From Gemmatimonadota bacterium (lineage in GTDB: Bacteria > Gemmatimonadota > Gemmatimonadetes > Palauibacterales > KS3-K002): DNA of 20,628 bases. Position 1 is the first letter of the stretch, and each line of letters opens with the position of its first letter. Position numbers and translations under genes: made by a program. The DNA is taken from positions 1 through 20,628 of the forward strand of contig JBDHJS010000055.1 in the NCBI GenBank assembly GCA_039586795.1. The letters are read 5' to 3'. Under the pieces are notes generated by a model. That model searched no databases. It worked only from the letters and a program-made list of their open reading frames with translations, and had not been told where the DNA came from. Positions 4,165 to 20,628 of this stretch are shown here, piece by piece.

Positions 4165-4191
4165 TCACGACTCACCACTCACGACTCGGAC
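4165..4191 (+). repeat. Short tandem heptamer repeat
   Basis: TCACGAC TCACCAC TCACGAC TCGGAC in the divergent intergenic region. Confidence 0.55.
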
Positions 4192-5565: not shown

Positions 5566-7077
5566 ATGAAAAGGCAGATACTCATCAATGCGGCTCCCCA
5601 CGAGACGCGAGTCGCGATACTGGAGGACAACGTCCTCGTCGAGCTCATGCTCGACCGCCCGGACGCGCAACGGATGGTGGGCGACATCTATCTGGGGCGC
5701 GTCGAAGGTGTGTTGCCCGGCATCCAGGCCGCCTTCGTCAACATAGGCACGGATAAAGCCGGGTTCCTTCACGTCTCGGACCTCGCCGACGAGGATCCGG
5801 AAGCGTCGGAGGAAGAGAAGGGCGTCAAGCGCTACCCGCCCATCCAGACCCTGATCAAGAAGGGCGATGAGATCCTTGTGCAGGTGACCAAGGAGCCCAT
5901 CAGCACCAAGGGTCCCAGAGTCACCGCCCAGGTCTCCCTGCCAGGACGCAACCTGGTCTATATGCCGAAGAGCGAGCACATCGGCGTCTCCCGAAAGATC
6001 GATAGTCGGGAGGAGCGGACACGGCTGCGCCGGCTGATGCGGAATATTCTCAAGCCGGGCGAAGGCGGTGTCATCGTTCGAACGGTGGGCGAGGACGCGA
6101 AGCGCCGGTCGCTGGAGCGCGAGCTCAAGGGACTCGCGAAGACGTGGAAGAAAGTGGAAGCGAAAGTGGTCGAGGCGCAGGCGCCCGCCATGATCCATCA
6201 GGAAGCCCACCTGGCTGCCGGCATCATCCGCGACTTGTTCAGTGAAAAGGTGGATGCGCTGATCGTCGACTCCCGGGAGATCTACATCGAGGTCCGCAAC
6301 TACCTGGAGGCTGTGGATCCTGACCTGATGAAGCGGGTCAGTTTGGACGACGGCGCCGTGTCGCTGTTCGACAAACTCGATATCGAAGAAGAGATCCGCC
6401 GCTCGTTCGACAGCCGCGTCGAGCTCCCGTCCGGTGGCTACGTGGTCATCGAACAGACTGAGGGGCTGGTGGCGATCGACGTGAACACCGGACGCTACAC
6501 CGGCAAGAAGGATCCGGAGAAGACGATCCTACGCACCAACATGGACGCGGCGCGGGAGATCGCACGTCAGCTGCGGCTGCGCGACATCGGCGGCATCATC
6601 GTCGTCGACTTCATCGACATGGAAGACAAGGCGAACCGCGACAAGGTGATGCAAGAGCTGCGCACCCACCTGGGCCGGGACCGGGCGCGTACGAAGGCGT
6701 TCCCGATCTCCGACCTGGGGCTGGTGGAGATGACCCGGCAGCGGGTGCGGCCCAGCGTCTATCACACCGTCACGCAACCGTGTCCCCACTGCGGTGGCTC
6801 CGGGCGGATCGTGAACCCGTCGACCGTGGTCCGCCGGGTCGAGCGGGCGGTGCGGCGCGTGGCAGCGGCCAAGGAAGAGAAGCGGCTGGTGATTCGGCTC
6901 CACCCGGAGGTAGCGCTACATATTCTGGAAGAAGAACCCAATCTGCTGCGGCGGCTCGAGTCGGAGTACCGGGTCGATATCGAGGTGCGGGACGATCCTT
7001 TGATGCAAGCGGATGAGTTCCGAATCTTGGCGGGGCCTGCGGACGTCGATGTGACGTCGCGGTACGCGGTAGCTTAA
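5566..7077 (+). CDS. rng: Rne/Rng family ribonuclease (RNase G-like, no long C-terminal scaffold)
   Basis: 503 aa. S1 domain GDIYLGRVEGVLPGIQAAFVNIG, catalytic IDVNTG and LRDIGGIIVVDFIDM, Zn-link CPHCGGSG. AGGA SD upstream. Confidence 0.93.
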   Translation: MKRQILINAAPHETRVAILEDNVLVELMLDRPDAQRMVGDIYLGRVEGVLPGIQAAFVNIGTDKAGFLHVSDLADEDPEASEEEKGVKRYPPIQTLIKKGDEILVQVTKEPISTKGPRVTAQVSLPGRNLVYMPKSEHIGVSRKIDSREERTRLRRLMRNILKPGEGGVIVRTVGEDAKRRSLERELKGLAKTWKKVEAKVVEAQAPAMIHQEAHLAAGIIRDLFSEKVDALIVDSREIYIEVRNYLEAVDPDLMKRVSLDDGAVSLFDKLDIEEEIRRSFDSRVELPSGGYVVIEQTEGLVAIDVNTGRYTGKKDPEKTILRTNMDAAREIARQLRLRDIGGIIVVDFIDMEDKANRDKVMQELRTHLGRDRARTKAFPISDLGLVEMTRQRVRPSVYHTVTQPCPHCGGSGRIVNPSTVVRRVERAVRRVAAAKEEKRLVIRLHPEVALHILEEEPNLLRRLESEYRVDIEVRDDPLMQADEFRILAGPADVDVTSRYAVA

Positions 7078-7083
7078 AGAGGA

Positions 7084-7106
7084 AAGGCCCGGCTGTGCCG
7101 GGCCTT
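7084..7106 (+). terminator. Palindromic hairpin after rng (terminator or REP-like; stem identical to 8135-8157)
   Basis: AAGGCCCGGC-TGT-GCCGGGCCTT, a 10-bp perfect stem followed by ACATTT. Confidence 0.65.
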
Positions 7107-7113
7107 ACATTTC

Positions 7114-7173
7114 GACAGCCGACAGCGGACAGCCGTCGCTCCACGGCCGAGGACAATTCGGCGATCGAGGTTC
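7114..7173 (+). repeat. Dispersed 60-bp intergenic element, copy 1
   Basis: GACAGCC GACAGCG GACAGCC GTCGCTCCACGGC CGAGGACAATTCGGCGATCGAGGTTC; 54/60 identical to copy 3. Confidence 0.9.
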
Positions 7174-7214
7174 GATTTCCGACGGTCTTCGGGCAGCGGA
7201 CGGTCGTTGTGACG

Positions 7215-7287: not shown

Positions 7288-7842
7288 GTGACATACGCGA
7301 TTTTCAAGGCCGCAGGCTTCCAATATCGCGCCGAGTTGGGCGACGTTTTGCGCCTCCCATCGTTGGATGCGGAGTCGGGCGACGAGGTGACGTTCGACCA
7401 GGTGCTGCTGGGGTCGAACGAGGGTGAAGTGATGATCGGGCGGCCGACGTTGGATGGCGCTGCCGTGCGTGCGGAAGTGCTACGCCACGGGCGAGCGGAC
7501 AAGATCATCGTCTTCAGGTTCAAGCGCCGCAAGAACGTGCGCCGCAAGACGGGTCATCGACAGGACTTTACCGAAATACGGGTCAGCCAGATCGACTTCG
7601 GTGGGGACAAGGTCGTGAAGCTGGAGCCGGCGAAGGAGCCCGCCAAGAAGAAGGCGGCGCCGAAGAAGGCCGAGGCGGCGACGGTAAAGAAGAAGGCTCC
7701 GGCCAAGAAGCCGACGACCAAGAAGAAGGCGCCGGCCAAGCCGAAGGCCGAGACGAAGAAGAAGACGACGACGGCCAAGGCGAAGCCGAAGACCGAGGCC
7801 AAGGCCAAGACGACGACGAAGTCCAAGAAGAAGAAATCCTAG
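7288..7842 (+). CDS. rplU: 50S ribosomal protein L21 with a Lys/Ala/Thr-rich C-terminal extension
   Basis: (M)[18 protein letters not shown]...[28 protein letters not shown] is the L21 signature. GTG at 7288 best matches the usual N-terminus. It lies directly upstream of rpmA. Confidence 0.95.
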
Positions 7843-7856
7843 CAGGGACGGCCAGC

Positions 7857-8111
7857 ATGGCTCATAAGAAAGCAGGCGGATCGACGCGCAACGGCCGCGA
7901 CAGCAATCCTAAGTTCTTGGGTGTGAAGAAGTACGGCGGTCAGTTCGTGCGCGCGGGTAACATCATCATGCGGCAGCGTGGAACGAAGATTCATCCGGGT
8001 CGCAATGTCGGCAAAGGCGGTGATGATACGTTGTTCGCGTTGGCGGATGGGTATGTTTCGTTTGGGACTATGCGTGGTAGGAAGGTTGTTTCTGTGGTCG
8101 CAGAAGCCTAA
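7857..8111 (+). CDS. rpmA: 50S ribosomal protein L27
   Basis: [24 protein letters not shown]...[24 protein letters not shown], 84 aa. Confidence 0.98.
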
Positions 8112-8134
8112 CGCTGTGGGGTTTCTAATATGAT

Positions 8135-8166
8135 AAGGCCCGGCTTTGCCGGGCCTTTCTTATTTT
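8135..8166 (+). terminator. Intrinsic terminator of rplU-rpmA
   Basis: AAGGCCCGGC-TTT-GCCGGGCCTT followed by TCTTATTTT. Confidence 0.8.
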
Positions 8167-8226
8167 GACAGCGGACAGCCGACGGCCGCGTACCGACGAC
8201 CGAGGACAATTCGGCGATCGACGTTC
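8167..8226 (+). repeat. Dispersed 60-bp intergenic element, copy 2
   Basis: GACAGCG GACAGCC GACGGCC GCGTACCGACGAC CGAGGACAATTCGGCGATCGACGTTC; 50/60 identical to copy 3, with the last 26 nt identical. Confidence 0.9.
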
Positions 8227-8256
8227 TGCGCTCGGCCGCATCCATTCCCTCAACGT

Positions 8257-8287
8257 TCCGTGCTCCGTGCCCAATGTTCATTGTTCG
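8257..8287 (-). repeat. TGAACAT heptamer-family repeat downstream of dinB
   Basis: The minus strand reads CGAACAA TGAACAT TGGGCAC GGAGCAC GGA; 24/31 identical to 9883-9913 on the plus strand. Confidence 0.75.
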
Positions 8288-8290
8288 ATC

Positions 8291-8803
8291 TCAATCGAAA
8301 CCCATCGTGTCGTCGGCCGAGGGGCCATAGGTGCCGGGTAACGGGACGTCAAGCAGTCTTAGAAAGACCGTTAGCTGACCCCGGTGGTGGATGATGTGGT
8401 TCAGGTTCATGCGTATGACGGATAGCCGCGATTGGGTGAAGATGTCTCGGCCGCCGGCCTTTAGGGTCCAGGGTTCGGAGAAGGCATCCTCTTTGGTGGC
8501 CCGGATGGTGTCGACCATCTGGGCCAGGTTGGTGTCGAACAGCTCGACGATCTCGGATACGGAATCGAGCATCGTCGGCACGAACGGAGGGCCGCCGGGT
8601 GGCATGATGTCTAGCTCGTCCAGCTTCAGGGCGTTCACGCCCCATGTGGGCAGCTCGGCCAGGTGCGTCGCCAGGCGACTCAGTGGCATCGACTTCTCGT
8701 GCGGCTTCCAGCTCAGCTGGTCCTCGGGAACACGCTCCAGCAGCCGACGCGTTGCAGCCGCCTCTTGCTCGATCTCCGGAAGTAAGAATTCGGCGATGGA
8801 CAC
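8291..8803 (-). CDS. DinB/YfiT-family protein (four-helix, His-triad metalloprotein; not DNA polymerase IV)
   Basis: 170 aa with WKPHEKSMPLSRLATHLAE and NHIIHHRGQLTVFLRLLDVPLPGTYGPSAD. GTG start with AGGAGG SD. Confidence 0.9.
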   Translation of the reverse strand: MSIAEFLLPEIEQEAAATRRLLERVPEDQLSWKPHEKSMPLSRLATHLAELPTWGVNALKLDELDIMPPGGPPFVPTMLDSVSEIVELFDTNLAQMVDTIRATKEDAFSEPWTLKAGGRDIFTQSRLSVIRMNLNHIIHHRGQLTVFLRLLDVPLPGTYGPSADDTMGFD

Positions 8804-8901
8804 GGGTGCCTCCTACGGTCGGGGTTGTCTGGATTGGGAATCGAACTTATGAAACGATGTTTCGACGATCAAGAAAACGTGTCATCTAACTCGAGGTTCC
8901 A

Positions 8902-9882
8902 ATGAACCGATGCTTCATCGTTGCGCTGGCGCTTCCTCTCACCTTCCTCGCTTGTAGCTCCGAGTCTTCCGAACGGTCGAATACCGAAGGCGAGTCGGAG
9001 GTGAGTAGCCAAACCGAAGCGGCTTCTGCTAGAGCGCAGCTGCCTGCCGGCCGCACTCAGATCGTTCTGCTGGGCACCGGAAACCCGAACGCCGATCCCG
9101 AGCGCTCGGGCCCCGCGCTGGCCATCGTCGTCGACGACGTGCCGTACCTGGTCGACCTCGGTCCCGGTGTCGTGCGGCGCGCCGCGGCAGCGCACCAAGC
9201 GGGCGTCGAGGGGCTGGCCGTCGAGCGCCTGAAGACCGCCTTCATCACTCACTTGCACACCGACCACACGCTGGGCTACGCCGATTTCATGTTCACTCCC
9301 TGGGTGCTGGAGCGAGACTTGCCCGCCGAGGTCTACGGGCCGCCCGGCCTCGCCAACATGACCCGGCACCTGCGCGCCGCCTACGAGCGAGATGTGCGCA
9401 TCCGCATCGACGGGATGGAGCCCGCGAACACCGAAGGCTATAAGGTGAACGTCCACGAGATCGAGCCGGGAGTGATCTTCGAGGACGAGCGCGTGCGCGT
9501 CACCGCCTTCGCGGTCATCCACGGATCATGGGAACACGCCTTCGGCTACCGCTTCGATACGCCCGACCGCAGCATCGTCATCTCGGGGGATGCTCGACCC
9601 GGCCAGAGCGTGATCGAAGCGTGCAACGGCTGTGACGTGCTGATCCACGAAGTGTACGCCCAGGCCGGATTTGACCGGCGCGAACCAGTGTGGCAGCGCT
9701 ATCATTCGCAATTCCACACGTCGGGCCCGGAACTGGGTGAGTTGGCTGTGCAGGCGAGGCCTGGCGTGCTGATTCTGTATCACCAGTTGTTGTGGGGCGC
9801 TACTCCGGAGGAGCTTGTGGGGGAGATTCGGTCGGTGTTTGATGGGCCGGTGGTGTATGGAAATGATTTGGATGTGTTCTGA
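8902..9882 (+). CDS. MBL-fold metallohydrolase (RNase Z/AtsA-like), predicted lipoprotein
   Basis: LLGTGNP, THLHTDH, HGSW, SGD, DVLIHE and ILYH motifs. The N-terminal signal peptide ends in a lipobox-like FLAC, followed by a Ser/Glu-rich linker. Confidence 0.88.
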   Translation: MNRCFIVALALPLTFLACSSESSERSNTEGESEVSSQTEAASARAQLPAGRTQIVLLGTGNPNADPERSGPALAIVVDDVPYLVDLGPGVVRRAAAAHQAGVEGLAVERLKTAFITHLHTDHTLGYADFMFTPWVLERDLPAEVYGPPGLANMTRHLRAAYERDVRIRIDGMEPANTEGYKVNVHEIEPGVIFEDERVRVTAFAVIHGSWEHAFGYRFDTPDRSIVISGDARPGQSVIEACNGCDVLIHEVYAQAGFDRREPVWQRYHSQFHTSGPELGELAVQARPGVLILYHQLLWGATPEELVGEIRSVFDGPVVYGNDLDVF

Positions 9883-9913
9883 TGAACATTGAACACCGCA
9901 CATGGAGCACGGA
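9883..9913 (+). repeat. TGAACAT heptamer-family repeat downstream of the MBL gene
   Basis: TGAACAT TGAACAC CGCACAT GGAGCAC GGA, starting immediately after the stop codon. Confidence 0.75.
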
Positions 9914-10193
9914 GAGCTGAAGGAAGTGCCCCACGCTGAGCCGTGGCCATGGCAGCTACCCCGACGAAGTCGTCGTTCGTCTCGAGGGCCAGGACAACCT
10001 CCGAGGCGCGAGGCGGTCCAGCAAGTCGAGGAGTTGCTCGCCGGCCGCACCTGAATACGACGCTTGTGAGAACCTAAGAAGAAGCACGATATTTCGAACC
10101 GACAGGAACACGAGGCGTCTATTCGTCGCCGGCGCCAAAAGCAATCGTGCCCTGCAGATGTACGAGCGGCTGTACAGAAACAGGCGGTTGTGA

Positions 10194-12629
10194 ATGTCGT
10201 TGCTCCCGCGGGATCTCCGCATCGCCCTCCGCACCCAGCGGAGAGGCCGGGTTGCCCACCTAATCGCGATCTTCTCTCTCGCACTCGGAGTTGCCGGGAA
10301 CGCAGTTGTCTTCAGCATCGTCAACGCGTTCCTATTCAGGCCGCTGCCCTATCCCGAGTCCGACCGGATCGTCGTGCTGGGCGAGCGTGAGACGAGCCAG
10401 CCCGACTTGGCCATCCTCACCCTGACCTCTTCACTAGCCACCTGGGCCGACTATAGAGAGCAAAGCCGTACGCTCTCCGGGTGGGCTGCCTTCAACCCGG
10501 GATTCCTGAGTCTTTCGACCGGCGATGGATCGGTTCCGGTGAGAACAGGGGCCGTCACGCCCAGCTTCTTCGAGACGCTTGGAGCCAATACAGTTCGGGG
10601 TCGGTTGTTCACGGAGGCAGAGGACGTGCCGGGCGGCCCGAAGCTCGCCCTCCTGAGCTGGGAGTACTGGCAAGCCCGGGCGGGGCAGGAGGAGGATCCC
10701 GTCGGCTCCGTGCTCACGTTGCACGGCGAGCCGTACGAAGTGATCGGCGTCCTTGCCGAGGGGTTCGAGTTCATTGTACCGGACATCGATGTGTGGCTGC
10801 CGCTCCAGCGAGACCCACACGCGGCACCGCGACACCGGCGCAATGTCGTTTCGGTCGCGCGCATGGCGGCCAACGTGACGATGGCGGAGGTCGAGGCCGA
10901 AGTGACCGTCATCGCGGAGCGGATCGAGCGCGAGCACCCGGAGACGAGTGGCGACTGGACGGTGGACGCGCTCAACCTGCGCACGGAGATTCCGGAACCC
11001 CAGAGCCGCCTGTATATGGTGATCCTGCAGGCCTCGGTGTTCCTCGTCCTGCTCATCGCCTGCGCGAATATCGCAATACTTCTGCTCGCCTGGAGCCAGG
11101 ACCGTCGGCGCGAGATCGCGCTACGCGCGGCGTTAGGGGCAGGGCCGCTCCGCATCTTTGCTCAGCTTACCCGCGAGAGCCTGGTCATGGCAGCTATCGG
11201 CGGCGGCGCCGGCCTCGCCCTAGCCGCCGGAGGCATCAAGCTGATCGCCGATCGCTTCGCCTCGTCGGTGATGCCGCGCATGTGGATCCCGTCGCTCGAC
11301 ACACGCGTCGTCTTGTTCACTATCGGGATTACCGCTCTCTGCGGCCTCGCCTTCGGGCTCTTCCCGGCGCTCCAGAGCATCAGGGCGAACCAGGTTGACG
11401 CGCTCAAAGAGGGCGGAGGCGTTGGGTTTTCCGGTGGCCGGCGTCGGGTTCGGGTCCGCACAGCCCTCGTCGTCGCCGAGATCGCGCTGTCCCTCGTCGC
11501 TCTGGGAGGCGGGAGCGTCCTGGTCCGGAGCTTCCTCGAAATGAAGAACCGGGACCCCGGCTTCGAGGCGAGCACCCTCCTGACCGTGCGGTTCAGCCTC
11601 CCGAGTTGGAAGTACGAGGATGTCGCAAGCGGAGTCCCCGTGCTGGATCAGATCCGCGAGGGTACCGCAGCCCTGCCGGGTGCTCTGTCGGCGGCGCTAA
11701 CGACCGCCCTGCCGCAGGATCTGTTCCCTTCGACCGACACCTTCCGCGTCGAGGGTCAGCCCATCCAGCAAGCCGCCGGTGCACCGCGGGCCGTATCGGT
11801 CCGCGCGTCACCCGACTATCTGCAGACATTCGACGTGCCACTGCTCCAGGGCCGTTTCTTCGAGGAATCGGATCGCGCCGACGCTTCGCCGGTCGCCGTC
11901 ATCAACCGGACGATGGCTAGGCGTCGTTTCCCGAGACGGAGTCCGATCGGTCATCGGGTTCTCTTTCGGGGGGAGTCCCGTGAGATCGTCGGCGTGGCTG
12001 CCGACGTGCGGCAGATGCTGATGGGGGGACAGAGCGAAGGGTTCGAGGAGGCCGTTTACATCCCTCTGACCCAAGATCCGACGGGCGCCGCCTATCTCGT
12101 GGTTCGGACAATCGGCGACCCGCGAGCTCTGTCCGAGCCCATCCGGAGGGAGATCGCCAAGATCGATCCCGACGTGACGATCAACACGGTCGAGACGATG
12201 GAGGAATACGCAAGCAAATACGTCGTCGGACTCGACATCTTTAACGCGATCTTCGGCGGGTTCAGCATCTTCGCCCTGTTGCTGGCGTCACTGGGTACCT
12301 ACGGCGTCGTCTCTTACTCCGTCTCGCAGCGGAATCAAGAAATCGGTGTCCGCCTGGCCCTGGGGGGCCGGGCAGGCGACATCGTGGCAATGATCGCCAT
12401 GCACGGCGTCAGGTTGTCGATCGTCGGTCTGCTGGTTGGCACCTTCCTGTTGCTCCCCGTGGTGGCACTGATCGGAAGCGTGCTGGAGGACCTGGCACTG
12501 GCACCGGTCGAACCACTGATCGTGGTGGCGGTGGCCGCCCTATTGTTCGGCGTAACGGTAACCGCCAGCATCATTCCGGCGAGCTGGGCAGCCAGAGTGG
12601 ATCCGATGAGGGTGCTCAAGGCGGAATGA
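10194..12629 (+). CDS. ADOP-type duplicated MacB/FtsX ABC permease
   Basis: 811 aa with two MacB-periplasmic + FtsX units: LALGVAGNAVVFSIVNAFLFRPLPYPESDRIV, LLIACANIA...RRREIALRAALGA, YGVVSYSVSQRNQEIGVRLALG, and a C-terminal AARVDPMRVLKAE. Confidence 0.92.
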   Translation: MSLLPRDLRIALRTQRRGRVAHLIAIFSLALGVAGNAVVFSIVNAFLFRPLPYPESDRIVVLGERETSQPDLAILTLTSSLATWADYREQSRTLSGWAAFNPGFLSLSTGDGSVPVRTGAVTPSFFETLGANTVRGRLFTEAEDVPGGPKLALLSWEYWQARAGQEEDPVGSVLTLHGEPYEVIGVLAEGFEFIVPDIDVWLPLQRDPHAAPRHRRNVVSVARMAANVTMAEVEAEVTVIAERIEREHPETSGDWTVDALNLRTEIPEPQSRLYMVILQASVFLVLLIACANIAILLLAWSQDRRREIALRAALGAGPLRIFAQLTRESLVMAAIGGGAGLALAAGGIKLIADRFASSVMPRMWIPSLDTRVVLFTIGITALCGLAFGLFPALQSIRANQVDALKEGGGVGFSGGRRRVRVRTALVVAEIALSLVALGGGSVLVRSFLEMKNRDPGFEASTLLTVRFSLPSWKYEDVASGVPVLDQIREGTAALPGALSAALTTALPQDLFPSTDTFRVEGQPIQQAAGAPRAVSVRASPDYLQTFDVPLLQGRFFEESDRADASPVAVINRTMARRRFPRRSPIGHRVLFRGESREIVGVAADVRQMLMGGQSEGFEEAVYIPLTQDPTGAAYLVVRTIGDPRALSEPIRREIAKIDPDVTINTVETMEEYASKYVVGLDIFNAIFGGFSIFALLLASLGTYGVVSYSVSQRNQEIGVRLALGGRAGDIVAMIAMHGVRLSIVGLLVGTFLLLPVVALIGSVLEDLALAPVEPLIVVAVAALLFGVTVTASIIPASWAARVDPMRVLKAE

Positions 12630-12636
12630 CCCATGA

Positions 12637-12706
12637 GCAGTAAGCGGTAGACGGTAGCTGATAACTTCGAATTCCATAACTCCACGAATCCACGAGTCCA
12701 CGAATC
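12637..12706 (+). repeat. Adjacent degenerate heptamer and octamer tandem repeats
   Basis: GCAGTAA GCGGTAG ACGGTAG CTGATAA (12637-12664), then TCCATAAC TCCACGAA TCCACGAG TCCACGAA TC (12673-12706). Confidence 0.65.
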
Positions 12707-12879
12707 TGATTCCCACTAACAACATCCCAACGGACGGGCACACGTTCACTGTCGGATCGAGAACACGGTGGACTCCCCGGGGTGTGCCGGAAGGGCTCAG
12801 CAGCTTCCCGACGGCCTTCTGAAATCGGGCGCCTTCACCGCATTGCTGTGCACACGCGCACGTCCTTGAGCGGGCGGCC

Positions 12880-12895
12880 CGGCACCGAAATTGCG
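12880..12895 (+). promoter_or_regulatory. Sigma-54 (-24/-12) promoter upstream of the asnB-like gene
   Basis: CGGCACCGAAATTGCG gives GG-N10-GC, with GGCAC and TTGC matching the TGGCAC-N5-TTGC consensus. It ends about 87 nt before the ATG. Confidence 0.7.
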
Positions 12896-12981
12896 CCCCG
12901 TTGAGATCGCCTCCCGCTCCCGCGAAGGGACCGAGCGCCAGAGGTCGGGGAGAACTCGGAAATAGAAGGGGAGCCACGTAC

Positions 12982-14883
12982 ATGTGCGGAATCGTTGGGG
13001 TATTGAACCTCACCAATCCAGCACCGGTGGATGCGGAGCTGCTACGGGTCGCCAATGCGGCGCTGCACCATAGAGGTCCTGACGGTTCGGGCGAATTCGT
13101 GGAAGCGGACGTCGGGATGGCGATGCGACGCCTGAGCATCATCGACGTCGCTCAGGGCCATCAGCCGATGGCAAACGAGGACGGCAGCGTGCGCGTCGTC
13201 TACAACGGCGAGATCTACAACCACGAAGATTTGCGCCGTGACCTCGAAGCTCGAGGACACAGGTTCCACACCCATGCAGACACCGAGGTGCTCGTGCATG
13301 GCTACGAGGAATGGGGACGCGACGGGCTCCTAGAGAGGCTGCGCGGGATGTTCGCCTTCGCCATCTGGGACGATAAACGCCGTGCGGTGTTTCTCGCCCG
13401 CGATCGCATGGGCATCAAACCTCTGTACACTGCGGAGTACGATGGGCGGTTCTATTTCGCATCCGAAATTCGCAGCATTCTGCTACTCTCGGAAATGCCG
13501 CGGCGCCCAAACTTGAACGCGCTTGGCCTCTATATGCGCGTCGGTTTCGTGACGGCTCCACACACGATTCTCGAGGGTTTAACGAAACTGCCGCCCGCGC
13601 ACTACCTGTGGATCGAGGATGGAAAGGTGTCCAGCCACGAGTATTGGACGCTCTCCTACGAACCCACCAATCGCGACGCGGAGACGGCCATCGTCGAGGG
13701 CTTCCGCGAGCGCCTGGAGGACTCGATACGGACACATCTGATGAGCGAGGTGCCGCTCGGGGCACTACTGTCGGGCGGTGTGGACTCGACCACGACCGTG
13801 GCCTTCATGGGCAGGATGCTCAGCGAGCCGGTCAATACGGTCACCGTCGGTTTCGCAGGGGCGAGCTTAGACGAGACGGAATTGGCGAAGGCGTCGGCCC
13901 GAGAGCTGGGTACCGAGCACCATACGGTCGTCTTCACGCACGACACGATGGCCGACTACCCGTCCGTGATACGCGCTCAAGAGGAGCCATTTGGGCGTCC
14001 CACAAATGCTGCGCTGTACTACTTGTTCAAGGCCTGTCGTGAACACGGCCTGACGGTGATGATGACGGGGGAGGGGGCGGATGAACTGCTCGGTGGCTAC
14101 GGCTGGCACCGCAAGAATCAGAGCGGTCGGCTGCAATCAGCGATCTCGCGCCTGCCGCTTGGGCTGCGTCGGGCGTTTGCCGGCAGTGGCACGCTTCGCG
14201 CAATAGGCCAATCTGGACGCGCGCTGCTGCGCTCCACTCGTGGTGAAGAGACACGCCTCCACCGACGGTTTGCTGAACTCATCCGCATCGGTGATTGCGA
14301 TGTCGGCGTAGAGCTGCTGTCGTCGGACGTGCGCTCCGCAGTCGGCGCCGATGCCGGACAGTCGATCATCGATGGTTGGGAGGATTGGCTGGCCTGCGTT
14401 CGCGGTCAGCCGGAATTCGGCCAACTCCTTTGGCTTCAGTCGCGAACACGCATGCCGGACTACATCATTCAAGGGCTCGACAAACACAGCATGGCACATT
14501 CTGTCGAGGCTCGCCCGCCGCTTCTCGATCATCTGCTTTGGGAGTACTGCGCCGCCCTGCCGAGCGACATCAAGCTGCGCGACGGGACGGAGAAGTATCT
14601 TTTGCGACAGGCCGGAATGCACATCGTGCCGGAAGCAGCTCGCACCCGGCGCAAGAAGCCGCTGCGTGTTCCTTACGAGCGCTGGATCGCAAAACAGCGC
14701 TTGCCCGATTGGGCGGAATGCGCGCTGGATACCACTCAGCTTCGCCGCACCGGGCTGTTCGATCCAAGAGCGGTGAGCCAGCTCCGGCAACGTGTGCAGG
14801 CGGGTGAACGGCGGAACGTTGCGTTGCTTTCTGCGGTGCTGAATCTACAGACGTGGGTCAGCGTTTTTATTGATGCGCCGTAG
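12982..14883 (+). CDS. asnB: Asparagine synthase (glutamine-hydrolysing) family amidotransferase
   Basis: The start is MCGIVG (Ntn Cys2) at 12982, with a GGGGAG SD. Motifs HRGPD, RRLSIID, YNGEIYN, ARDRMGIKPL, LLSGGVDS and TGEGADELLGGY. 633 aa. The substrate may not be free aspartate. Confidence 0.9.
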   Translation: MCGIVGVLNLTNPAPVDAELLRVANAALHHRGPDGSGEFVEADVGMAMRRLSIIDVAQGHQPMANEDGSVRVVYNGEIYNHEDLRRDLEARGHRFHTHADTEVLVHGYEEWGRDGLLERLRGMFAFAIWDDKRRAVFLARDRMGIKPLYTAEYDGRFYFASEIRSILLLSEMPRRPNLNALGLYMRVGFVTAPHTILEGLTKLPPAHYLWIEDGKVSSHEYWTLSYEPTNRDAETAIVEGFRERLEDSIRTHLMSEVPLGALLSGGVDSTTTVAFMGRMLSEPVNTVTVGFAGASLDETELAKASARELGTEHHTVVFTHDTMADYPSVIRAQEEPFGRPTNAALYYLFKACREHGLTVMMTGEGADELLGGYGWHRKNQSGRLQSAISRLPLGLRRAFAGSGTLRAIGQSGRALLRSTRGEETRLHRRFAELIRIGDCDVGVELLSSDVRSAVGADAGQSIIDGWEDWLACVRGQPEFGQLLWLQSRTRMPDYIIQGLDKHSMAHSVEARPPLLDHLLWEYCAALPSDIKLRDGTEKYLLRQAGMHIVPEAARTRRKKPLRVPYERWIAKQRLPDWAECALDTTQLRRTGLFDPRAVSQLRQRVQAGERRNVALLSAVLNLQTWVSVFIDAP

Positions 14884-14925
14884 TGAGTCCTGATCGCTGG
14901 CGGGCCGCCGTGGTAGACCCTCAAA

Positions 14926-15041
14926 TGAACATTGAACATTGTTCACGGAACATGTGAACATTGATGGCTTTGCCCACGCTGGGTCCTGTGCAGTAGTTTC
15001 GTCCCATGTTCAGCTGGTCCATGCCCAATGTTCAATGTTCA
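14926..15041. repeat. 116-bp element with perfect 16-bp terminal inverted repeats (MITE/REP-like, TGAACAT family)
   Basis: TGAACATTGAACATTG (14926-14941) and CAATGTTCAATGTTCA (15026-15041). Extra units at 14955-14961 and 15006-15012. Confidence 0.75.
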
Positions 15042-15058
15042 CCTCGCCAGGAGCGACC

Positions 15059-16774
15059 ATGTCATCCCGTCTAGACCTCGACCGCCGCCGCTTCCTAGCC
15101 TACTTCTCCACCCTAGGCCTCGGCTCATCCCTCTTCCCGGGCGTTCTCTGGGCAAGGCTCCAGGAGGAGGAGGAACCGCGCATAACGGCCGACCTGCTCG
15201 ACGAGGCCGAACAGATCGCCGGCCTGGAATTCACCGAGGAAGAACGCGAGTTGATGCTCCGCGGCCTCAACAGCCGCCTCCGCGCCTTCGAGCAGTTACG
15301 CGAGGTCGAGCTGCCCAACAGCATCTCTCCCGCGCTCTACTTCGATCCGGTGCCGCCCGGACACACCGCCAGCGCGAACGATGGTGTGTCGACGCGCAGC
15401 AGCGTCACCATCGACAGCTTTCCTTCCAACCTGGAAGACGTCGCGTTCTGGCCCGTCACTCACCTCGCGAAGCTGATCGAGACACGCCAGATCACGTCCG
15501 TGCAACTCACCGAGATGTACATGGACCGTCTCGGTCGCTACGGGCCGAAGCTCGAGTGCACCATCAACCCGACGTACGAGCTGGCGATGGAACAGGCGCG
15601 GCGCGCCGACGAGGAGATCGCCGCCGGCCATTACCGCGGGCCGCTGCACGGCATCCCGTGGGGCGCCAAGGACCTGCTGTCGGTGAAGGGCTATCCCACC
15701 ACGTGGGGCGCCATGCCGTTCAAGGACCAGATGATCGAGGAGAACGCCACCGTGGTGCAGCGTCTGGAGGAGGCGGGCGCGGTGCTCATCGCCAAGCTAA
15801 CGCTTGGCGCGTTGGCGATGGGCGATGTCTGGTACGGTGGAAAGACGCGAAATCCGTGGGACTACGAGCAGGGATCGAGCGGCTCGTCTGCCGGATCGGC
15901 AGCGGCGACGGCCGCCGGACTGATCGGCTTCGGAATCGGAACGGAGACACTAGGCTCCATCGTTTCGCCGTGCACCCGGTGCGGAACGACCGGGCTACGC
16001 CCCACCTTCGGGCGCGTGAGTCGGTCGGGCGCCATGGCGCTCTCCTGGAGCATGGACAAGATCGGGCCGATCTGTCGCAGCGTTGAAGACTGCGCCCTAG
16101 TGTTCGACGCGATCTACGGTCCGGACGGACAAGATCTATCGGTGGTCGATCAGCCGTTCGCCTGGAACGCCGACATGGATATTCATTCGCTACGCATCGG
16201 GTACGTCGTCAGCGCATTCGAGGAAGAGCGGGAGCGCGAGCCCGAGTGGCAGCAGTTCGATTTGAATTCGCTGCACGTGATGCGGGCGCTGGGCGTCGAT
16301 CTGATCCCCATCGAGCTTCCCGAGGAGCTGCCGATCGGCGCCATGCGCATCATCCTCAGCGCCGAAGCCGCCGCGGCGTTCGATGACCTCACGCGGAACG
16401 GCCGCGACGATCTACTCAAGAGGCAGGACCGCGGTGCCTGGCCGAACTCCTTCAGGACATCACGGTTCATACCGGCCGTCGAGTATATCCAGGCCAACCG
16501 CGTCCGAACGCTGGCCCTCGAGAAGATGGCGGAGCTCATGTCGGATATCGACGTCTACGTCGTCCCATCTTACGGTGGGAACAACCTGACGTTGACCAAC
16601 CTGACGGGTCATCCCTGCGTGGTGTTGCCGAACGGCTTCAGAGAGGATGGGACGCCGACCAGCCTCAGCTTCATGGGCAGGCTGTATGGCGAGGCGGAAA
16701 CGCTGGCCGTCGCCCGCGCCTACCAGGAAGCAACGCATTTCTACAAACGGCACCCGACGCTACTGATCGACTAA
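15059..16774 (+). CDS. Amidase-signature family enzyme with a Tat-like N-terminus
   Basis: Start MSSRLDLDRRRFLAY at 15059 with AGGAG SD. GPLHGIPWGAKDL, GSSGSSAGS and GTETLGSI supply the Lys-cisSer-Ser triad. 571 aa. Confidence 0.92.
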   Translation: MSSRLDLDRRRFLAYFSTLGLGSSLFPGVLWARLQEEEEPRITADLLDEAEQIAGLEFTEEERELMLRGLNSRLRAFEQLREVELPNSISPALYFDPVPPGHTASANDGVSTRSSVTIDSFPSNLEDVAFWPVTHLAKLIETRQITSVQLTEMYMDRLGRYGPKLECTINPTYELAMEQARRADEEIAAGHYRGPLHGIPWGAKDLLSVKGYPTTWGAMPFKDQMIEENATVVQRLEEAGAVLIAKLTLGALAMGDVWYGGKTRNPWDYEQGSSGSSAGSAAATAAGLIGFGIGTETLGSIVSPCTRCGTTGLRPTFGRVSRSGAMALSWSMDKIGPICRSVEDCALVFDAIYGPDGQDLSVVDQPFAWNADMDIHSLRIGYVVSAFEEEREREPEWQQFDLNSLHVMRALGVDLIPIELPEELPIGAMRIILSAEAAAAFDDLTRNGRDDLLKRQDRGAWPNSFRTSRFIPAVEYIQANRVRTLALEKMAELMSDIDVYVVPSYGGNNLTLTNLTGHPCVVLPNGFREDGTPTSLSFMGRLYGEAETLAVARAYQEATHFYKRHPTLLID

Positions 16775-16780
16775 TGAGTA

Positions 16781-17902
16781 CTAATCGTCCATGAAGAAAC
16801 GCTCGAATTCGTCCCAGCGTGCTCGGGCGTCCTCGTACCCTAGCTCGATCACTTGGCTCAGGTAGGGCTCACCGAAGATCAGATAGCTCAGTAGATCGCC
16901 GGCCTGAACGCGCTCTACTCCTGTGCCGCGCAGTAGGAAGCGTAGCGACCGGGGCAGCAGCTTCCTGTGTCCGGCGGCCATCACCCCTAGGTCGCGGGAC
17001 GGACGCACGATGTGCAGCTTGAGTGGACGAAGCCCTCTTGGATTCGGGATTCCGTAGGGCAGCGCGTCCAGAACGTCGTTCAACCTGCGTAGTCGTTCGG
17101 CATCCTGCTCCAGCGTGTCGAGAAAGATCGTGTTGAACAGCGTACCGGCAATTTGTGCCGGCGATGGGTAATACGTAGAAGCACGCGCCTTTACCTCTTC
17201 CAGCGTCGCCGCATAGCGTGTCGAAATGGCGAGCAGTCGTTTGGCACCCAGATGAACGGCGGGTGCCAGAGGGGCGGCCTGTCGGATGCTACCGTCACCG
17301 TAGTACTCACCGTCCACCTTGATCGCGGGAAAGACCAGAGGGAGCGCGCTTGATGCCATCACATGGTCGACAGTGATTTTTGTGCCCTTTCCGGTACGAC
17401 GGGCGCGTTCCCAGGTTGGAATCCCCTCGCTGCCGTGAACGAACGTGACAGTCTGTCCGGTGGAATAACGCGTGGTCGTGAGCGCGAGGGCCGTCAGCCG
17501 GTCTCGGCGCACGTTCGTCTCTATCCCGTCGACGTCGAGGCAACCGTCTAGAAACTCGCGCAACGGTCGCGTGTCCAAAAGCGCTCCGGACTTCTCCGTT
17601 CGATCGCGCGGGGTTATGCGGCCCATCGTCCACAATCCGCGCACGATGGTTTTGCCGATCGCACCGATGTTTGTATAGAAGACTTGGTCGACGGTCAGAT
17701 TTCGCCACGCCGCTGCCAGTTCATCGAGCACCGGCGGTCCGCTGTCTTGATGGCCGGCTAGGAACGTGGCATTGATGGCGCCGGCCGAGACGCCGGTGAT
17801 GATCGGGAACTGGACGTCAGGTGCCCGTTCCGCGATACAGGTCAGTACACCGACTTGGTAGGCAGCACGCGCGCCTCCACCAGACAAAACGAGGCCGTTC
17901 AT
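16781..17902 (-). CDS. Patatin-like phospholipase
   Basis: LSGGGARAAYQVG oxyanion loop, GVSAG nucleophile elbow, ASSALP and DGS motif. 373 aa. Confidence 0.92.
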   Translation of the reverse strand: MNGLVLSGGGARAAYQVGVLTCIAERAPDVQFPIITGVSAGAINATFLAGHQDSGPPVLDELAAAWRNLTVDQVFYTNIGAIGKTIVRGLWTMGRITPRDRTEKSGALLDTRPLREFLDGCLDVDGIETNVRRDRLTALALTTTRYSTGQTVTFVHGSEGIPTWERARRTGKGTKITVDHVMASSALPLVFPAIKVDGEYYGDGSIRQAAPLAPAVHLGAKRLLAISTRYAATLEEVKARASTYYPSPAQIAGTLFNTIFLDTLEQDAERLRRLNDVLDALPYGIPNPRGLRPLKLHIVRPSRDLGVMAAGHRKLLPRSLRFLLRGTGVERVQAGDLLSYLIFGEPYLSQVIELGYEDARARWDEFERFFMDD

Positions 17903-18175
17903 AACATCAGCGCATCCACTTCTTGTTCAGCGACATCGCGAGACCGACGCCGGGCACGACAGCAGGAACGTCCGCGCCGCGGCGGCAGTTCCTCCGACCC
18001 TGGGCAATGGGTATGGACGGGCACGAGGGACAGGACTCGAAGGTACCACACGGGCTGGCGTGCGACCAGCCGGGTCAGCCGAGCCGTCGTAGTGGAGCGT
18101 CGACAGGGCCGGAGGTGTCTCGTATCTTCTTCAAGGAACACGGGGCAACCTCAATTCCGACAGGGAGATGCGACC

Positions 18176-18658
18176 GTGAATCTCTATCTGCTTCGCCACG
18201 GCGAAGCGCAGGCGAAGCAGCAGGATCCGGAGCGGCCGTTGACCGCAGCGGGCGCTGAGATGGCCCGTCGCGTCGCCCGCTTTCTGGGCGGTCTCGATCT
18301 CCGCCTCGCCGGGGTCCAGCACAGCACCAAGCTCCGTGCTCGCCAGACCGCGGAGATCATCGCCGAGGGCGCCGGTCTCTCCGCCCCCGTCACTCAGGTC
18401 CCGAACCTGGAACCCCTCGATGACGTCGAGGGGCTGGCGGACGCGCTGACTTCCGGAGCGACGAGCGACCTGATGCTGGTCGGTCATCTGCCGCACCTGA
18501 ATCGCCTGGCTTCCCGGCTTGTGGCGGGTGACGCGGGCCTCGAGCTATTCGCGTTTCCGGAATGTGGGGTGCTTTGCCTGCGACGAGGCGAAGGAAACGC
18601 GGGTGCCGGACCGGTGTGGCGCGTGCAGTGGATGATAGCACCGGAGTCGCTACTCTAG
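18176..18658 (+). CDS. sixA: Phosphohistidine phosphatase SixA
   Basis: GTG start at 18176 (GGGAG SD): (M)NLYLLRHGEA...RPLT...HSTKLRARQTA...LMLVGHLPHL. 160 aa. Confidence 0.88.
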   Translation: MNLYLLRHGEAQAKQQDPERPLTAAGAEMARRVARFLGGLDLRLAGVQHSTKLRARQTAEIIAEGAGLSAPVTQVPNLEPLDDVEGLADALTSGATSDLMLVGHLPHLNRLASRLVAGDAGLELFAFPECGVLCLRRGEGNAGAGPVWRVQWMIAPESLL

Positions 18659-18677
18659 AACATTTAGATCGGGGTGG

Positions 18678-19511
18678 GTGAACGAAGTCATAGCAATGGA
18701 ACGTGAACTGGAATTCGAGCCACTGAAAATCCTTCACAACGCTCGCGACGACGAACTGCTGCGTGCCGGCCGTCGCACGATCTGGGGTGACCTCACACCG
18801 GACGAAGACGGGCTGATACGCGCCGACCACGACCAGGTACCGTATACCTATGGCCTATTCATCCAATCGAAGGATGGCAGGGCGATAGACTCCTTGGAAG
18901 GAGGCGTCGGGCGCATGTCCGGCGTGCCGTCCGATCGGTTTGGTCAGCTCGAATTGCGCGCCACCGTCGATGCCTTCCTAGTCGGTGGAGCCACGCTGCG
19001 CGGCGATCGCACGGTGGGCGTGCCCGGCCAGAGCGAGCTCGTGCATCGCCGGCGGAAGGAGAAAGGGAACGACGCGCCGCTCAACGTCTTCTTCTCGAAC
19101 TCGGGTGATATACCAGGGGATCTGCCGGTATTCTTCATGGACGAGGTGAAGACCGCGATCTTCATCGGCGAGAAGGCGGCGGATAGGGCGAAGGAACTGC
19201 GAATTCTCACCAATGATGTGACGGTGGTGAGCGCCGAGTCGCCGCTGCAGGATATGTGGAACGTGCTTTATCGGCGTGGTATCATGACGATTGGGTTTGA
19301 AGGCGGGCCGCATCTCATGGGCCTGGCGCTGCGCGACCGACTCGTCCACGAATTGTTGCTAACGCACTCGCCGCTGTTGTTGGGAGGATTGGGGCCGAGT
19401 TTTTCGGCGATACGGACGCCGCTGGAGGAGACCCGGGTGGAGCCGGTGTTTTTGGGGCTCGATGAGGGGAGTGGGCTCTTGTTTGAGCGTAGTAGGGTGG
19501 TGTACGGGTAG
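18678..19511 (+). CDS. RibD C-terminal / dihydrofolate-reductase-family oxidoreductase
   Basis: FIQSKDGRA, LRATVDAFLVGGATLRGD, FEGGPHL and LVHELLLTHSPLLLGG motifs, with no deaminase domain. An alternative ATG start lies at 18696. Confidence 0.8.
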   Translation: MNEVIAMERELEFEPLKILHNARDDELLRAGRRTIWGDLTPDEDGLIRADHDQVPYTYGLFIQSKDGRAIDSLEGGVGRMSGVPSDRFGQLELRATVDAFLVGGATLRGDRTVGVPGQSELVHRRRKEKGNDAPLNVFFSNSGDIPGDLPVFFMDEVKTAIFIGEKAADRAKELRILTNDVTVVSAESPLQDMWNVLYRRGIMTIGFEGGPHLMGLALRDRLVHELLLTHSPLLLGGLGPSFSAIRTPLEETRVEPVFLGLDEGSGLLFERSRVVYG

Positions 19512-19573
19512 GGCCTTTCTCGGCCGTTTCGGCGGTCGACGTTCGACTCTCTTCTTACGACGTTCTTGATCTG

Positions 19574-19633
19574 GACAGCCAACAGCGGACAGCCGCCGCT
19601 CGACGTTCGAGGACAATTCGGCGATCGACGTTC
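19574..19633 (+). repeat. Dispersed 60-bp intergenic element, copy 3
   Basis: GACAGCC AACAGCG GACAGCC GCCGCTCGACGTT CGAGGACAATTCGGCGATCGACGTTC. Confidence 0.9.
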
Positions 19634-19713
19634 TACGGTCGACTATCGTATGGCGACGTTCCCGGGTTCCGGTTTGAGGCAGAACCTCGGCGCGTAGGGA
19701 GATACTGCAGATC

Positions 19714-20628
19714 ATGGGTCTGACGGGGCGACTCGGCGAGCTTGCTCGCCTTTTTTTGAAGTTGGGCTGTGTGGCGTTTGGTGGGCCCGCGGCGCATATC
19801 GCTATGTACGAGGACGAGGTGGTGCGACGGCGCGGGTGGATGACGGCGGAGCACTTTCTCGACCTGGTTGGTGCGACCAACCTGATTCCTGGGCCAAACT
19901 CCACCGAGATGACGATGCACGTAGGGTACGAACGTGCGGGGTGGGCGGGTCTCGTCGTAGCTGGTGTCAGCTTCATTCTGCCCGCGGCCCTCATCACCGG
20001 TCTGCTGGCCTGGCTCTATGTGCAATTCGGGGCGTTGCCGGCGGCGGCGCCATTCCTCGACGGCATCAAACCGGCGGTGATCGCGATCATCCTCGGCGCG
20101 GTCTGGCGGCTTGGCCGGTCGGCTGTGAAGAACGTTCGCGTCGTGGTGATCGGCGTTGGTGTGTTCGTCGCTGTCCTTGCCGGCCTCAACGAGGTTCTCG
20201 CTCTTTTGCTTGGTGGGGTCCTGGGCATGTTGTGGCTGAGCCTCGGCGGTCGAATTGGGAACGGGGCCGCGCTTCAGGTGCTGCCGCTGGGCGCTCCGTC
20301 GCTCAAAGCGGCTGGACTGGGAACGTTGGGTGCCGGTATCGGCGCTGCGGTGGCGGCTGTGCCGTTGTGGAAGCTGGGGCTCTTCTTCCTCAAGGTGGGG
20401 GCTATCCTCTATGGCAGCGGCTACGTATTAATCGCCTTTCTGCATGGCGATCTCGTGGCCGGGTACGGGTGGCTCACGGATCAACAACTACTCGACGCTG
20501 TCGCCATCGGTCAGTTCACGCCGGGCCCGGTGCTGTCGACGGCGACGTTCATCGGGTTCGTCATCGCCGGTATGCCGGGCGCCATCGTCGCGACCGTGGC
20601 GATCTTCCTGCCATCCTTCTTTTTCGTT
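19714..20628 (+). CDS. chrA: Chromate efflux transporter (CHR family, two-domain); truncated by the window end
   Basis: Manual translation (not in the ORF track): MGLTGRLGELARLFLKLGCVAFGGPAAHIAMYEDEVVRRRGWMTAEHFLDLVGATNLIPGPNSTEM, then a second domain FLKVGAILYGSGYVL...DAVAIGQFTPGPVLSTATFIG. AGGGAG lies upstream. Confidence 0.93.
   Translation, partial: MGLTGRLGELARLFLKLGCVAFGGPAAHIAMYEDEVVRRRGWMTAEHFLDLVGATNLIPGPNSTEMTMHVGYERAGWAGLVVAGVSFILPAALITGLLAWLYVQFGALPAAAPFLDGIKPAVIAIILGAVWRLGRSAVKNVRVVVIGVGVFVAVLAGLNEVLALLLGGVLGMLWLSLGGRIGNGAALQVLPLGAPSLKAAGLGTLGAGIGAAVAAVPLWKLGLFFLKVGAILYGSGYVLIAFLHGDLVAGYGWLTDQQLLDAVAIGQFTPGPVLSTATFIGFVIAGMPGAIVATVAIFLPSFFFV

Follow-up and report, generated by a model that had tools for sequence, protein, structure and literature searches.

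G-rich heptamer repeats form oriented intergenic runs in Xanthomonas and Nostoc (main text of Rehm et al. 2015, PMC4692102). The TAACTGA heptamers of Beggiatoaceae, Cyanobacteria and Bacteroidetes are likewise described as abundant, oriented, intergenic and patchily distributed, with a function that is unknown (main text of MacGregor 2015, PMC4679880). Here we analyse a 20,628-nt stretch of DNA, the window, which is the whole of contig JBDHJS010000055.1 (C101) of the 4.68-Mb genome of a Gemmatimonadota bacterium from sediment (GCA_039586795.1), which is 97.8% complete. Two unrelated repeat types, GACAGCC (family A) and TGAACAT (family B), form arms between the genes of the window, and the silent sites of the adjoining genes are depleted of cytosine on the strand that bears the arm. 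We refer to this depletion as the halo of an arm, and describe it in the window, across the genome and in relatives.

Cytosine loss beside repeat arms across the genome

Genes were identified with a purpose-written caller (4012 genes, 89% coding), chrA of the window being added by hand, and expected synonymous counts were taken from the genome as a whole, with codon family and gene position matched. The genome catalogue comprises 227 intergenic arms of 6-8-mer repeats in seven families and 170 clusters, of which 46 are inward-facing inverted pairs. The forward strand of the arms was set family by family. Family E (17 arms) was left out of the arm-oriented counts because its orientation is mixed, and was retained in the catalogue, in the repeat-free-end comparison and in the pooled and back-to-back classes of the comparison of solo arms, stems and pairs; family F mixes two sub-types.

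Silent positions within about 120 bases of the arms have lost up to half of their arm-strand cytosines. On the 5' side of the arms of families A-D, F and G (186 flanks), synonymous C on the arm strand was 316/508 = 0.62 of expectation at 0-60 nt and 781/987 = 0.79 at 60-120 nt, and stood at 1.02 and 1.01 beyond 120 nt. Per locus, the median z was -1.24 for 147 arm flanks and -0.10 for 4274 arm-free flanks (p=3e-21), with z below -2 in 32% and 6.1% of them, respectively. Repeat-free 3' and 5' ends showed little or no effect in every junction class (0.98 for arm-free ends), and arm-free hairpin stems of 10-29 bp gave 0.98-0.99. Uncatalogued arms are still present among these controls, where stems of at least 30 bp gave 0.93 and a 'periodic-unassigned' class was partly shifted, so the contrast between arm and arm-free flanks is conservative. 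A first-pass annotation of the window had proposed a codon shift dependent on the repeats and their orientation, and the distance profile and the unaffected arm-free ends bear this out.

The halo is tied to the repeats and to arm orientation, whichever way the gene runs. At equal distance (31-90 nt), the loss was equal in genes on the arm strand and on the opposite strand (four-fold C 0.59-0.75 versus 0.57-0.60). Near-arm C lay below that of the same gene's interior at 50/54 co-directional 3' ends, 39/47 convergent 3' ends, 14/19 read-through 5' starts and 4/5 divergent starts. The loss was also seen where a terminator hairpin lay between gene and arm (0.64 at 60-120 nt, n=14), and was milder in the non-coding spacer near arms (C 0.23-0.24 versus 0.29) than at silent sites. 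By codon position, the C ratio was 0.93 and 0.92 at first and second positions versus 0.67 at the third. All six tested families showed the halo (four-fold C 0.54-0.70), though their arm sequences are unrelated. Relative to synonymous re-draws of the same sequence, folding of the strand opposite the arm is weaker by 3.6 kcal/mol, whilst that of the arm strand is unchanged (n=112).

Several candidate dependencies were rejected. A raw gap on the lagging strand (0.66 versus 0.81, p=0.02) was gone with the same-gene control, in which the two replication strands gave median ln ratios of -0.44 (n=40) and -0.34 (n=49; p=0.61), the leading strand having been inferred from regional skew on contigs only. 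A pooled hint that transcription through the arm was needed was not significant per locus. Pairing between left and right flanks was no stronger in real than in swapped combinations (-45.5 versus -46.4 kcal/mol, n=31, p=0.50), and avoidance of pairing with G-rich arms was set aside, as family B has the fewest G and a halo just as strong. As a side observation, A/T-ending codons in the interiors of arm-adjoining genes are at about 0.8 of expectation, slightly fewer than average; arms may sit preferentially beside core or well-expressed genes.

Arms and gene flanks of the window

The arms of the window are as follows.

7109..7194, plus strand: family A arm (GACAGCC heptamers and a conserved core), matching the arms around a four-helix-bundle gene on contig C53
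8162..8229, plus strand: family A arm, left half of a hybrid A/B cassette
8245..8286, minus strand: family B arm (TGAACAT heptamers)
9882..9925, plus strand: family B arm on the stop codon of the metallo-beta-lactamase-fold (MBL) gene, with an inverted partner at 15015-15041
14925..15041: paired family B cassette, with arm 14925-14964 on the plus strand and inverted arm 15006-15041 on the minus strand
19517..19654, plus strand: degenerate repeats (19517-19547) and a family A arm (19569-19654), for which no inverted partner was found

In the adjoining genes, whose identities from Pfam agree with the gene names of the first-pass annotation, the terminal 30 codons were scored (observed versus expected synonymous counts).

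6988..7077, plus strand: RNase E/G gene 3' tail, C-poor silent sites (C 6 versus 10.8)
8022..8111, plus strand: rpmA 3' tail, C-poor and T-rich (C 3 versus 10.2, T 12 versus 4.1)
8291..8380, minus strand: DinB-family gene 3' tail, arm-facing and unshifted (C 12 versus 11.3)
9793..9882, plus strand: MBL gene 3' tail (C 2 versus 11.5, T 10 versus 4.4, G 15 versus 9.1)
14794..14883, plus strand: asnB-like gene 3' tail (C 3 versus 10.9)
15059..15148, plus strand: amidase 5' start (G 1 versus 9.0, C 21 versus 12.5, A only 5 versus 2.8)
19422..19511, plus strand: RibD-like gene 3' tail (C 4 versus 10.0, G 19 versus 11.3, T only 6 versus 3.6)
19714..19803, plus strand: chrA 5' start (C 6 versus 11.6, T 10 versus 4.0)

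Six flanks are thus C-poor on the plus strand, namely the RNase E/G, rpmA, MBL, asnB-like and RibD-like ends and the chrA start; the MBL tail has the strongest halo of the window. The chrA start lies on the 3' side of a solo arm and is still C-poor on the arm strand. The amidase start is G-poor and C-rich, that is, C-poor on the minus strand that bears the arm. At five ends that have no catalogued arm, the counts are normal: acyl-CoA dehydrogenase (C 9 versus 10.3), the 3' end of the amidase gene (C 12 versus 11.3), patatin, sixA and the ABC permease. The first-pass annotation had read most of this from the letters. All four of its base counts were reproduced exactly (6 C in 8041-8100, 6 C in 9811-9880, 22 C in 9121-9180 and 8 C in 19441-19510), and its descriptions of a T/G-rich chrA start, a mirror pattern at the amidase start and normal repeat-free ends hold; the asnB-like and RNase E/G ends are C-poor flanks beyond those that it named.

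Bases that replace cytosine

The change is from C to any synonymous base, not from C to T alone. Difference-in-differences odds at four-fold sites were 2.06 for G:C, 2.03 for T:C and 1.32 for A:C (ln odds 0.72, 0.71 and 0.27±0.11). Gains of T are clear in families A and B, where four-fold T stood at 1.44 and 1.28. The T:C odds at two-fold sites were 2.52, those of leucine TTR:CTR 2.40 and those of isoleucine ATA:ATC 2.19. For arginine, AGR:CGR odds of 2.01 (ln 0.70±0.22) describe a shift that requires C to A; with the end-matched control alone, AGG:CGG gave 1.01 and no shift, so that the evidence for C to A depends on the control. The G:A ratio was little changed at two-fold sites (odds 1.09, ln 0.09±0.12) and raised at four-fold sites (ln 0.45±0.11), a pattern that fits a one-way flux from C and not simple additive selection on bases, by about two standard errors only. 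No preference for a 5' or 3' neighbouring base was found.

The C-to-T shift first proposed for the window stands as a genuine, repeat-tied loss of C, with a spectrum that takes in T, G and A and is confined to T only where T is the sole synonymous option. Plain deamination is not supported, since four-fold gains of G equal those of T, arginine AGR:CGR is raised and there is no context preference. An equilibrium model with raised C-to-T and A-to-G rates and GC-biased fixation matched the four-fold shifts against same-gene interiors in some settings; the match needs near-saturation, and the arginine shift is not reproduced.

Strand geometry around the arms

Paired cassettes have a plus strand rich in G/T on the left and in C/A on the right, which is the polarity of 3' overhangs at a break. 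The silent sites flip from G-rich to C-rich inside the four-helix-bundle gene in 4/4 gene-bearing cassettes, the silent G:C counts going from 25:8 to 7:21, 20:7 to 10:14, 18:8 to 11:18 and 24:8 to 5:26 between the first and last thirds of the genes. Solo arms without a stem are also effective (0.68, n=22), and the 3' side of solo A and C arms is C-poor on the arm's own strand as well (family A, 0.69, n=24; family C, 0.75, n=12). At back-to-back D/E pairs the sign is reversed in the outer flanks (1.18, n=10). The pattern is most simply described as a halo that follows the strand of the arm itself and is stronger on its 5' side.

Orthologues, conspecific contigs and other phyla

Comparison with relatives points to a derived shift. 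At codons 55-80 of rpmA, a third-position C occurs once here and 9-18 times in 29/29 other loci, and the RNase E/G tail has one four-fold C against 4-12 in relatives, nearly all of which have an empty downstream site (24 relatives among the matches listed). Over the RNase E/G, rpmA and MBL tails, C that is the majority base of orthologues was kept at 12/38 sites near arms versus 191/256 in gene interiors; the RibD-like gene (one orthologue) and the asnB-like gene (none) were left out of this polarisation. At 17 four-fold sites near arms with majority C, ten now have G and three T, and majority G had turned to T at 6/14 sites near arms versus 3/92 in interiors. Because orthologues without an arm keep C, the shift is derived. 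Contigs from four independent studies differ from the window at 0-1 positions over the rpmA, MBL, asnB/amidase and RibD tails. The pattern is therefore fixed in the species and is not an assembly error, and ongoing hypervariability is not visible in conspecific contigs.

The effect recurs in a relative (G010), and more weakly beside four-helix-bundle genes of other phyla. Among 40 stretches of G010 from the listed part of 88 motif matches, 19 gene ends have an arm where the present genome has none. Four-fold C made up 65/235 sites at these ends versus 231/556 at arm-free ends (p=2e-4), and two-fold C 72/106 versus 166/218 (p=0.14); 12/19 arm ends lay below their orthologue, against 15/42 others. 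For other phyla, the best 80 of 138 PF05635 loci outside this genome were taken, from Verrucomicrobiota, Planctomycetota, Bacteroidota and other groups, and the tails that face the cassette were scored as a class, not arm by arm. The drop at four-fold sites was -0.18 in 70 cassette-facing tails and -0.07 in 61 other tails of the same loci (p=0.04), and the two-fold drop was -0.15 versus -0.01 (p=0.007). One left-neighbour family is common to 25 of these best 80 loci (within L037-L082, Verrucomicrobiota), which is probably one ancestral site; with shared sites collapsed, 23/34 were negative (p=0.006). Patescibacteria do not follow (2/7).

Arms as the ends of four-helix-bundle cassettes

We read the arms as the terminal parts of four-helix-bundle (TIGR02436) cassettes and of their empty copies. 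The genome has four PF05635 matches over the cut-off, none of them inside the window; 4/4 pass TIGR02436, and each of the genes sits between inverted arms, with protein genes as neighbours. The nearest relatives of the protein are in Gemmatimonadota (70-73%), and a solved relative, 2RLD, has five chains. The three family A arms of the window align with both arms of the gene-bearing cassette on contig C53 (mean column identity 78%), and the window repeats are therefore taken to be empty or partial copies of a heptamer-armed cassette. This gene-bearing family A cassette (L001 600-870 and 1560-1860) has the strongest and longest halo of the genome, with z of -5.5 on the left flank and a reach of about 300 nt on both sides. 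No gene-bearing copy of the B arms was found. Small unrelated genes lie between arms at C39 22366-22818, C64 7650-8377 and C78 15567-16354, and are possibly cargo that replaced the four-helix-bundle gene. No Rfam match was found in the window or in the four cassette loci, and a PD-(D/E)XK_3/GxxExxY-type protein was considered as a partner of the arms and rejected.

Further features of the window belong to these cassettes or lie near them.

7084..7106: intrinsic-terminator-like hairpin between the RNase E/G gene and its arm
8135..8157, plus strand: intrinsic-terminator-like hairpin between rpmA and its arm
10194..14883, plus strand: ABC permease and asnB-like genes between two inverted B arms (9882 and 15041)
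12641..12706, plus strand: degenerate GTAGACG-type short piece and a run of the TCCACGAA 8-mer

The rpmA-dinB site (8162-8286) is occupied here by the hybrid cassette, with an A left arm and a B right arm; it is A/A in L012, carries other repeat types in L006-L008 and L010, and is empty in other relatives. The MBL gene directly precedes the amidase gene in at least seven related loci (L016, L116-L119, L122 and L124), so the 4.7-kb block at 10194..14883 is likely a later insertion, which may have entered at the TGAACAT cassette. The hairpin at 7084-7106 arrived with its arm, as relatives have the rplU promoter directly after the RNase E/G stop. The two hairpins are nearly identical, in inverted orientation, and bracket rplU-rpmA; RplU itself has a long Lys/Ala/Pro/Thr-rich C-terminal tail (7632-7842) that varies among relatives. 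Runs of other types, a TCACGAC 7-mer at 4165-4187 and the TCCACGAA 8-mer at 12681-12706, adjoin tested genes without a codon shift, and the ABC permease tail that precedes 12641..12706 is the unshifted one listed above (C 9 versus 10.3).

Possible causes of the halo

All junction classes are accounted for together by a process tied to a strand of the DNA, and for this reason we favour single-strand exposure. We put at about even the odds that the arm strand is opened again and again and, while unpaired, loses C via lesions and error-prone bypass, a scheme of which we infer every molecular step. The duplex would be opened at the arm, leaving the arm strand unpaired on both sides and more so on the 5' side; the opener could be a ring protein bound to the repeats of the arm strand, or else a copy of the repeats, in RNA or DNA, paired with the other strand. 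Exposed C would be deaminated and the uracil excised, and a translesion polymerase would then bypass the abasic site to leave T, G or A, with the genome-wide preference for G/C at silent sites turning part of the T into G. Slow action, or action in a past episode, would give a footprint that is fixed today and uneven between sites. The genome carries three uracil-DNA glycosylases and two Y-family polymerase genes, which, as in many bacteria, show only that the mechanism is possible. Of the first-pass proposal of exposed single-stranded DNA, the strand-exposure process thus remains our favoured reading, whilst deamination alone is not supported. A bolder version, which we regard as distinctly unlikely, would have an Avd-related four-helix-bundle ring bind the heptamers on one strand and hold open a bubble of ~250 nt. 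Each arm would then be a strand-specific cytosine mutator and recombination site without reverse transcriptase, and the whole a widespread selfish element that rewrites host silent sites across phyla, its footprint dating its arrival.

A number of observations speak against strand exposure at the arms. Arms are not sufficient, as a strong shift is seen at only about one flank in three. The dinB end is normal despite facing an arm of TGAACAT repeats, and in L012, of the same genus and with the same arm behind rpmA, the rpmA codons are normal (13 C, 2 T); there it is the dinB tail that is C-poor, the reverse of this genome, and dinB tails are C-poor in two relatives whose arm abuts the tail (L006 and L012). 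The functional arm strand had to be defined per family. Solo B arms are mirrored on the 3' side (G 0.38, n=4), for which undetected partner arms may be the explanation, and single C arms with a long stem are mirrored there too (C 1.41, n=11). The arms of the cassette on contig C24 read opposite to the family F pattern, with flanks that follow the usual left-G/T, right-C/A polarity. C-rich arms persist within the zone that would be expected to erode them. Four-fold A:C (ln odds 0.27±0.11) is below the arginine and isoleucine values (0.70 and 0.78), and abasic bypass in bacteria does not usually give C to G as often as C to T. Finally, the closest relatives found have 75-83% DNA identity and a four-fold identity of 0.43, so near saturation that single steps cannot be polarised, and no conspecific variation was seen in halos among 40 listed of 75 differences, in contigs that drop rare variants.

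The main alternative, a serious one although we consider it rather unlikely, is selection on RNA. In this account the opposite strand is kept C-rich, G-poor and unstructured for loading of Rho on transcripts that cross the element; a variant has C avoided on the arm strand, which would prevent Rho loading. The zone of 100-120 nt resembles the ~80-nt C>G bubbles of Rho terminators (as excerpted from PMC6144790), Rho is present, the sequence is fixed across studies, and avoidance of a base predicts that all synonymous bases take the place of C, with one-step changes to G and A among them, as observed. The weaker folding of the opposite strand agrees as well, though loss of G weakens folding automatically. 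It is the gene geometry that does not fit. An antisense Rho utilisation (rut) site needs an opposite-strand transcript, and co-directional 3' ends are at least as affected as convergent ones, with the strongest shift (0.54 versus 0.75 at 0-60 nt); read-through 5' starts have the gene's own mRNA as the C-rich strand; and the effect is small or absent at convergent ends and in long spacers that have no arm. Divergent pairs are weak in pooled counts, as selection on RNA would have it (0.98 at 60-120 nt, n=18), but tested locus by locus the class falls short of significance (n=5, p=0.18). Nor is G preferred before a purine, the odds being 2.20, 1.72, 2.23 and 2.17 for a following A, C, G and T. 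The Rho alternative, already raised in the first-pass annotation, thus agrees with composition and length and sits badly with the direction of genes.

Recombination drive, to which we give little credence, would make the arms polar recombination sites (Chi-like, or the ends of exchanged cassettes) at which G/T-rich alleles of the invading strand are preferred. The differing cassettes at one rpmA-dinB site among relatives and the 4.7-kb block between two B arms, where relatives have MBL beside amidase, speak for exchange, and G and T gain equally over C, which may be likened to the G/T preference of RecA. Exchange itself was not seen, however; the halo lies on both sides of solo arms, conspecific contigs are invariant, and escape of C:C mismatches gives no account of the two-fold C-to-T odds of 2.5. 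We give still less to a nick or double-strand break at a hairpin, after which resection would leave 3' overhangs that are deaminated (C to T on the left, G to A on the right). The flip from G/T-rich to C/A-rich at the centre of paired cassettes and their four genes is as this predicts, as are the clear T gains of families A and B, and to that extent the nicking idea of the first-pass annotation fits. But solo A and C arms are C-poor on both sides, with no 3'-side mirror, the outer flanks of back-to-back D/E pairs are opposite, arm-free stems of 10-29 bp are without effect, the arginine C-to-A and C-to-G shifts are not deamination products, and no RAYT nuclease was found in the genome. A generic gene-end effect, a target preference for C-poor sites or spill-over of repeats into genes is refuted as the main cause and scarcely credible otherwise. 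A slight A/T enrichment is general at gene ends, the arms of families C, F and G have G-rich sequences of their own, and orthologues in the present genome of arm-flanked G010 genes are slightly C-poor (79/235 versus 215/556, p=0.20). Against this, baselines were position-matched and arm-free ends stand at 0.98, arm-free orthologues keep C, and A and B arms are not G-rich and have equal halos.

The local strand asymmetry near arms is real, general and underexplored, and is likely the mark of a mutagenic process that acts locally on one strand and is tied to a widespread repeat-and-ring-protein element. The halo can be measured and has a direction, and so makes testable the role of a family of abundant repeats and of a ring protein (TIGR02436). 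If its cause is mutational, bacteria have hot zones of strand-specific mutation, anchored to a motif, that can outweigh codon preference even in the gene of a ribosomal protein; if it is selective, hosts recode the ends of genes beside heptamer elements to control transcription. On both accounts, local codon bias, GC skew and dS in the vicinity of such repeats reflect neither translation nor replication.

Comparison with known systems

No description of a halo around heptamer arms was found in the literature searched, which did not cover supplements or most subscription papers. The repeats of Rehm et al. 2015 are quadruplex-forming, whereas families A and B are not G-rich; quadruplex-capable G-tract units are absent from the window arms (GACAGCC and TGAACAT), and families E and G elsewhere in the genome do carry G-tracts. 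The term 'four helix' is absent from the main text of that paper, and no flanking codon shift is described in excerpts from it (PMC4692102). TAACTGA repeats are mostly direct and lie before start codons, and the main text that describes them is without 'skew' or 'four helix' (PMC4679880). The halo also differs from a REP/RAYT system, as PF01797 (Y1 HUH transposase) had no matches in the 97.8% complete genome, and from a diversity-generating retroelement, in which mutagenesis is A-to-N; the base lost here is C, no reverse transcriptase (PF00078) was found in the genome, and the best Avd score was 39 against a cut-off of 80. It lacks the C-to-T dominance and the enzyme context of a kataegis-like deamination cluster, as the spectrum is broad and all contexts are alike; a strand flip at the element is present in paired cassettes and absent at solo A and C arms.

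The likeness to Rho utilisation sites (as excerpted from PMC6144790) lies in an opposite strand that is C-rich, G-poor and weakly folded over ~120 nt. The halo, however, is oriented by the arm and not by the transcript, without a YC preference in the next-base odds.

The cassette genes resemble those of 23S rRNA intervening-sequence proteins (PF05635, TIGR02436), of which this genome has four, each between inverted arms; the intervening sequence sits in rRNA, whereas the genes described here lie between protein genes. The family stands far from the Avd proteins of diversity-generating retroelements, and no flanking mutational or compositional effect was found for it in the literature searched.

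Exposed single strands mutate asymmetrically, as in replication GC skew and in strand-coordinated clusters at resected breaks. The halo differs from such systems in its span of ~120 nt, its anchoring to repeats, its independence of replichore (p=0.61) and of sequence context, and the absence of a flip at solo arms. It shares with them the feature that one strand loses C and gains G/T.

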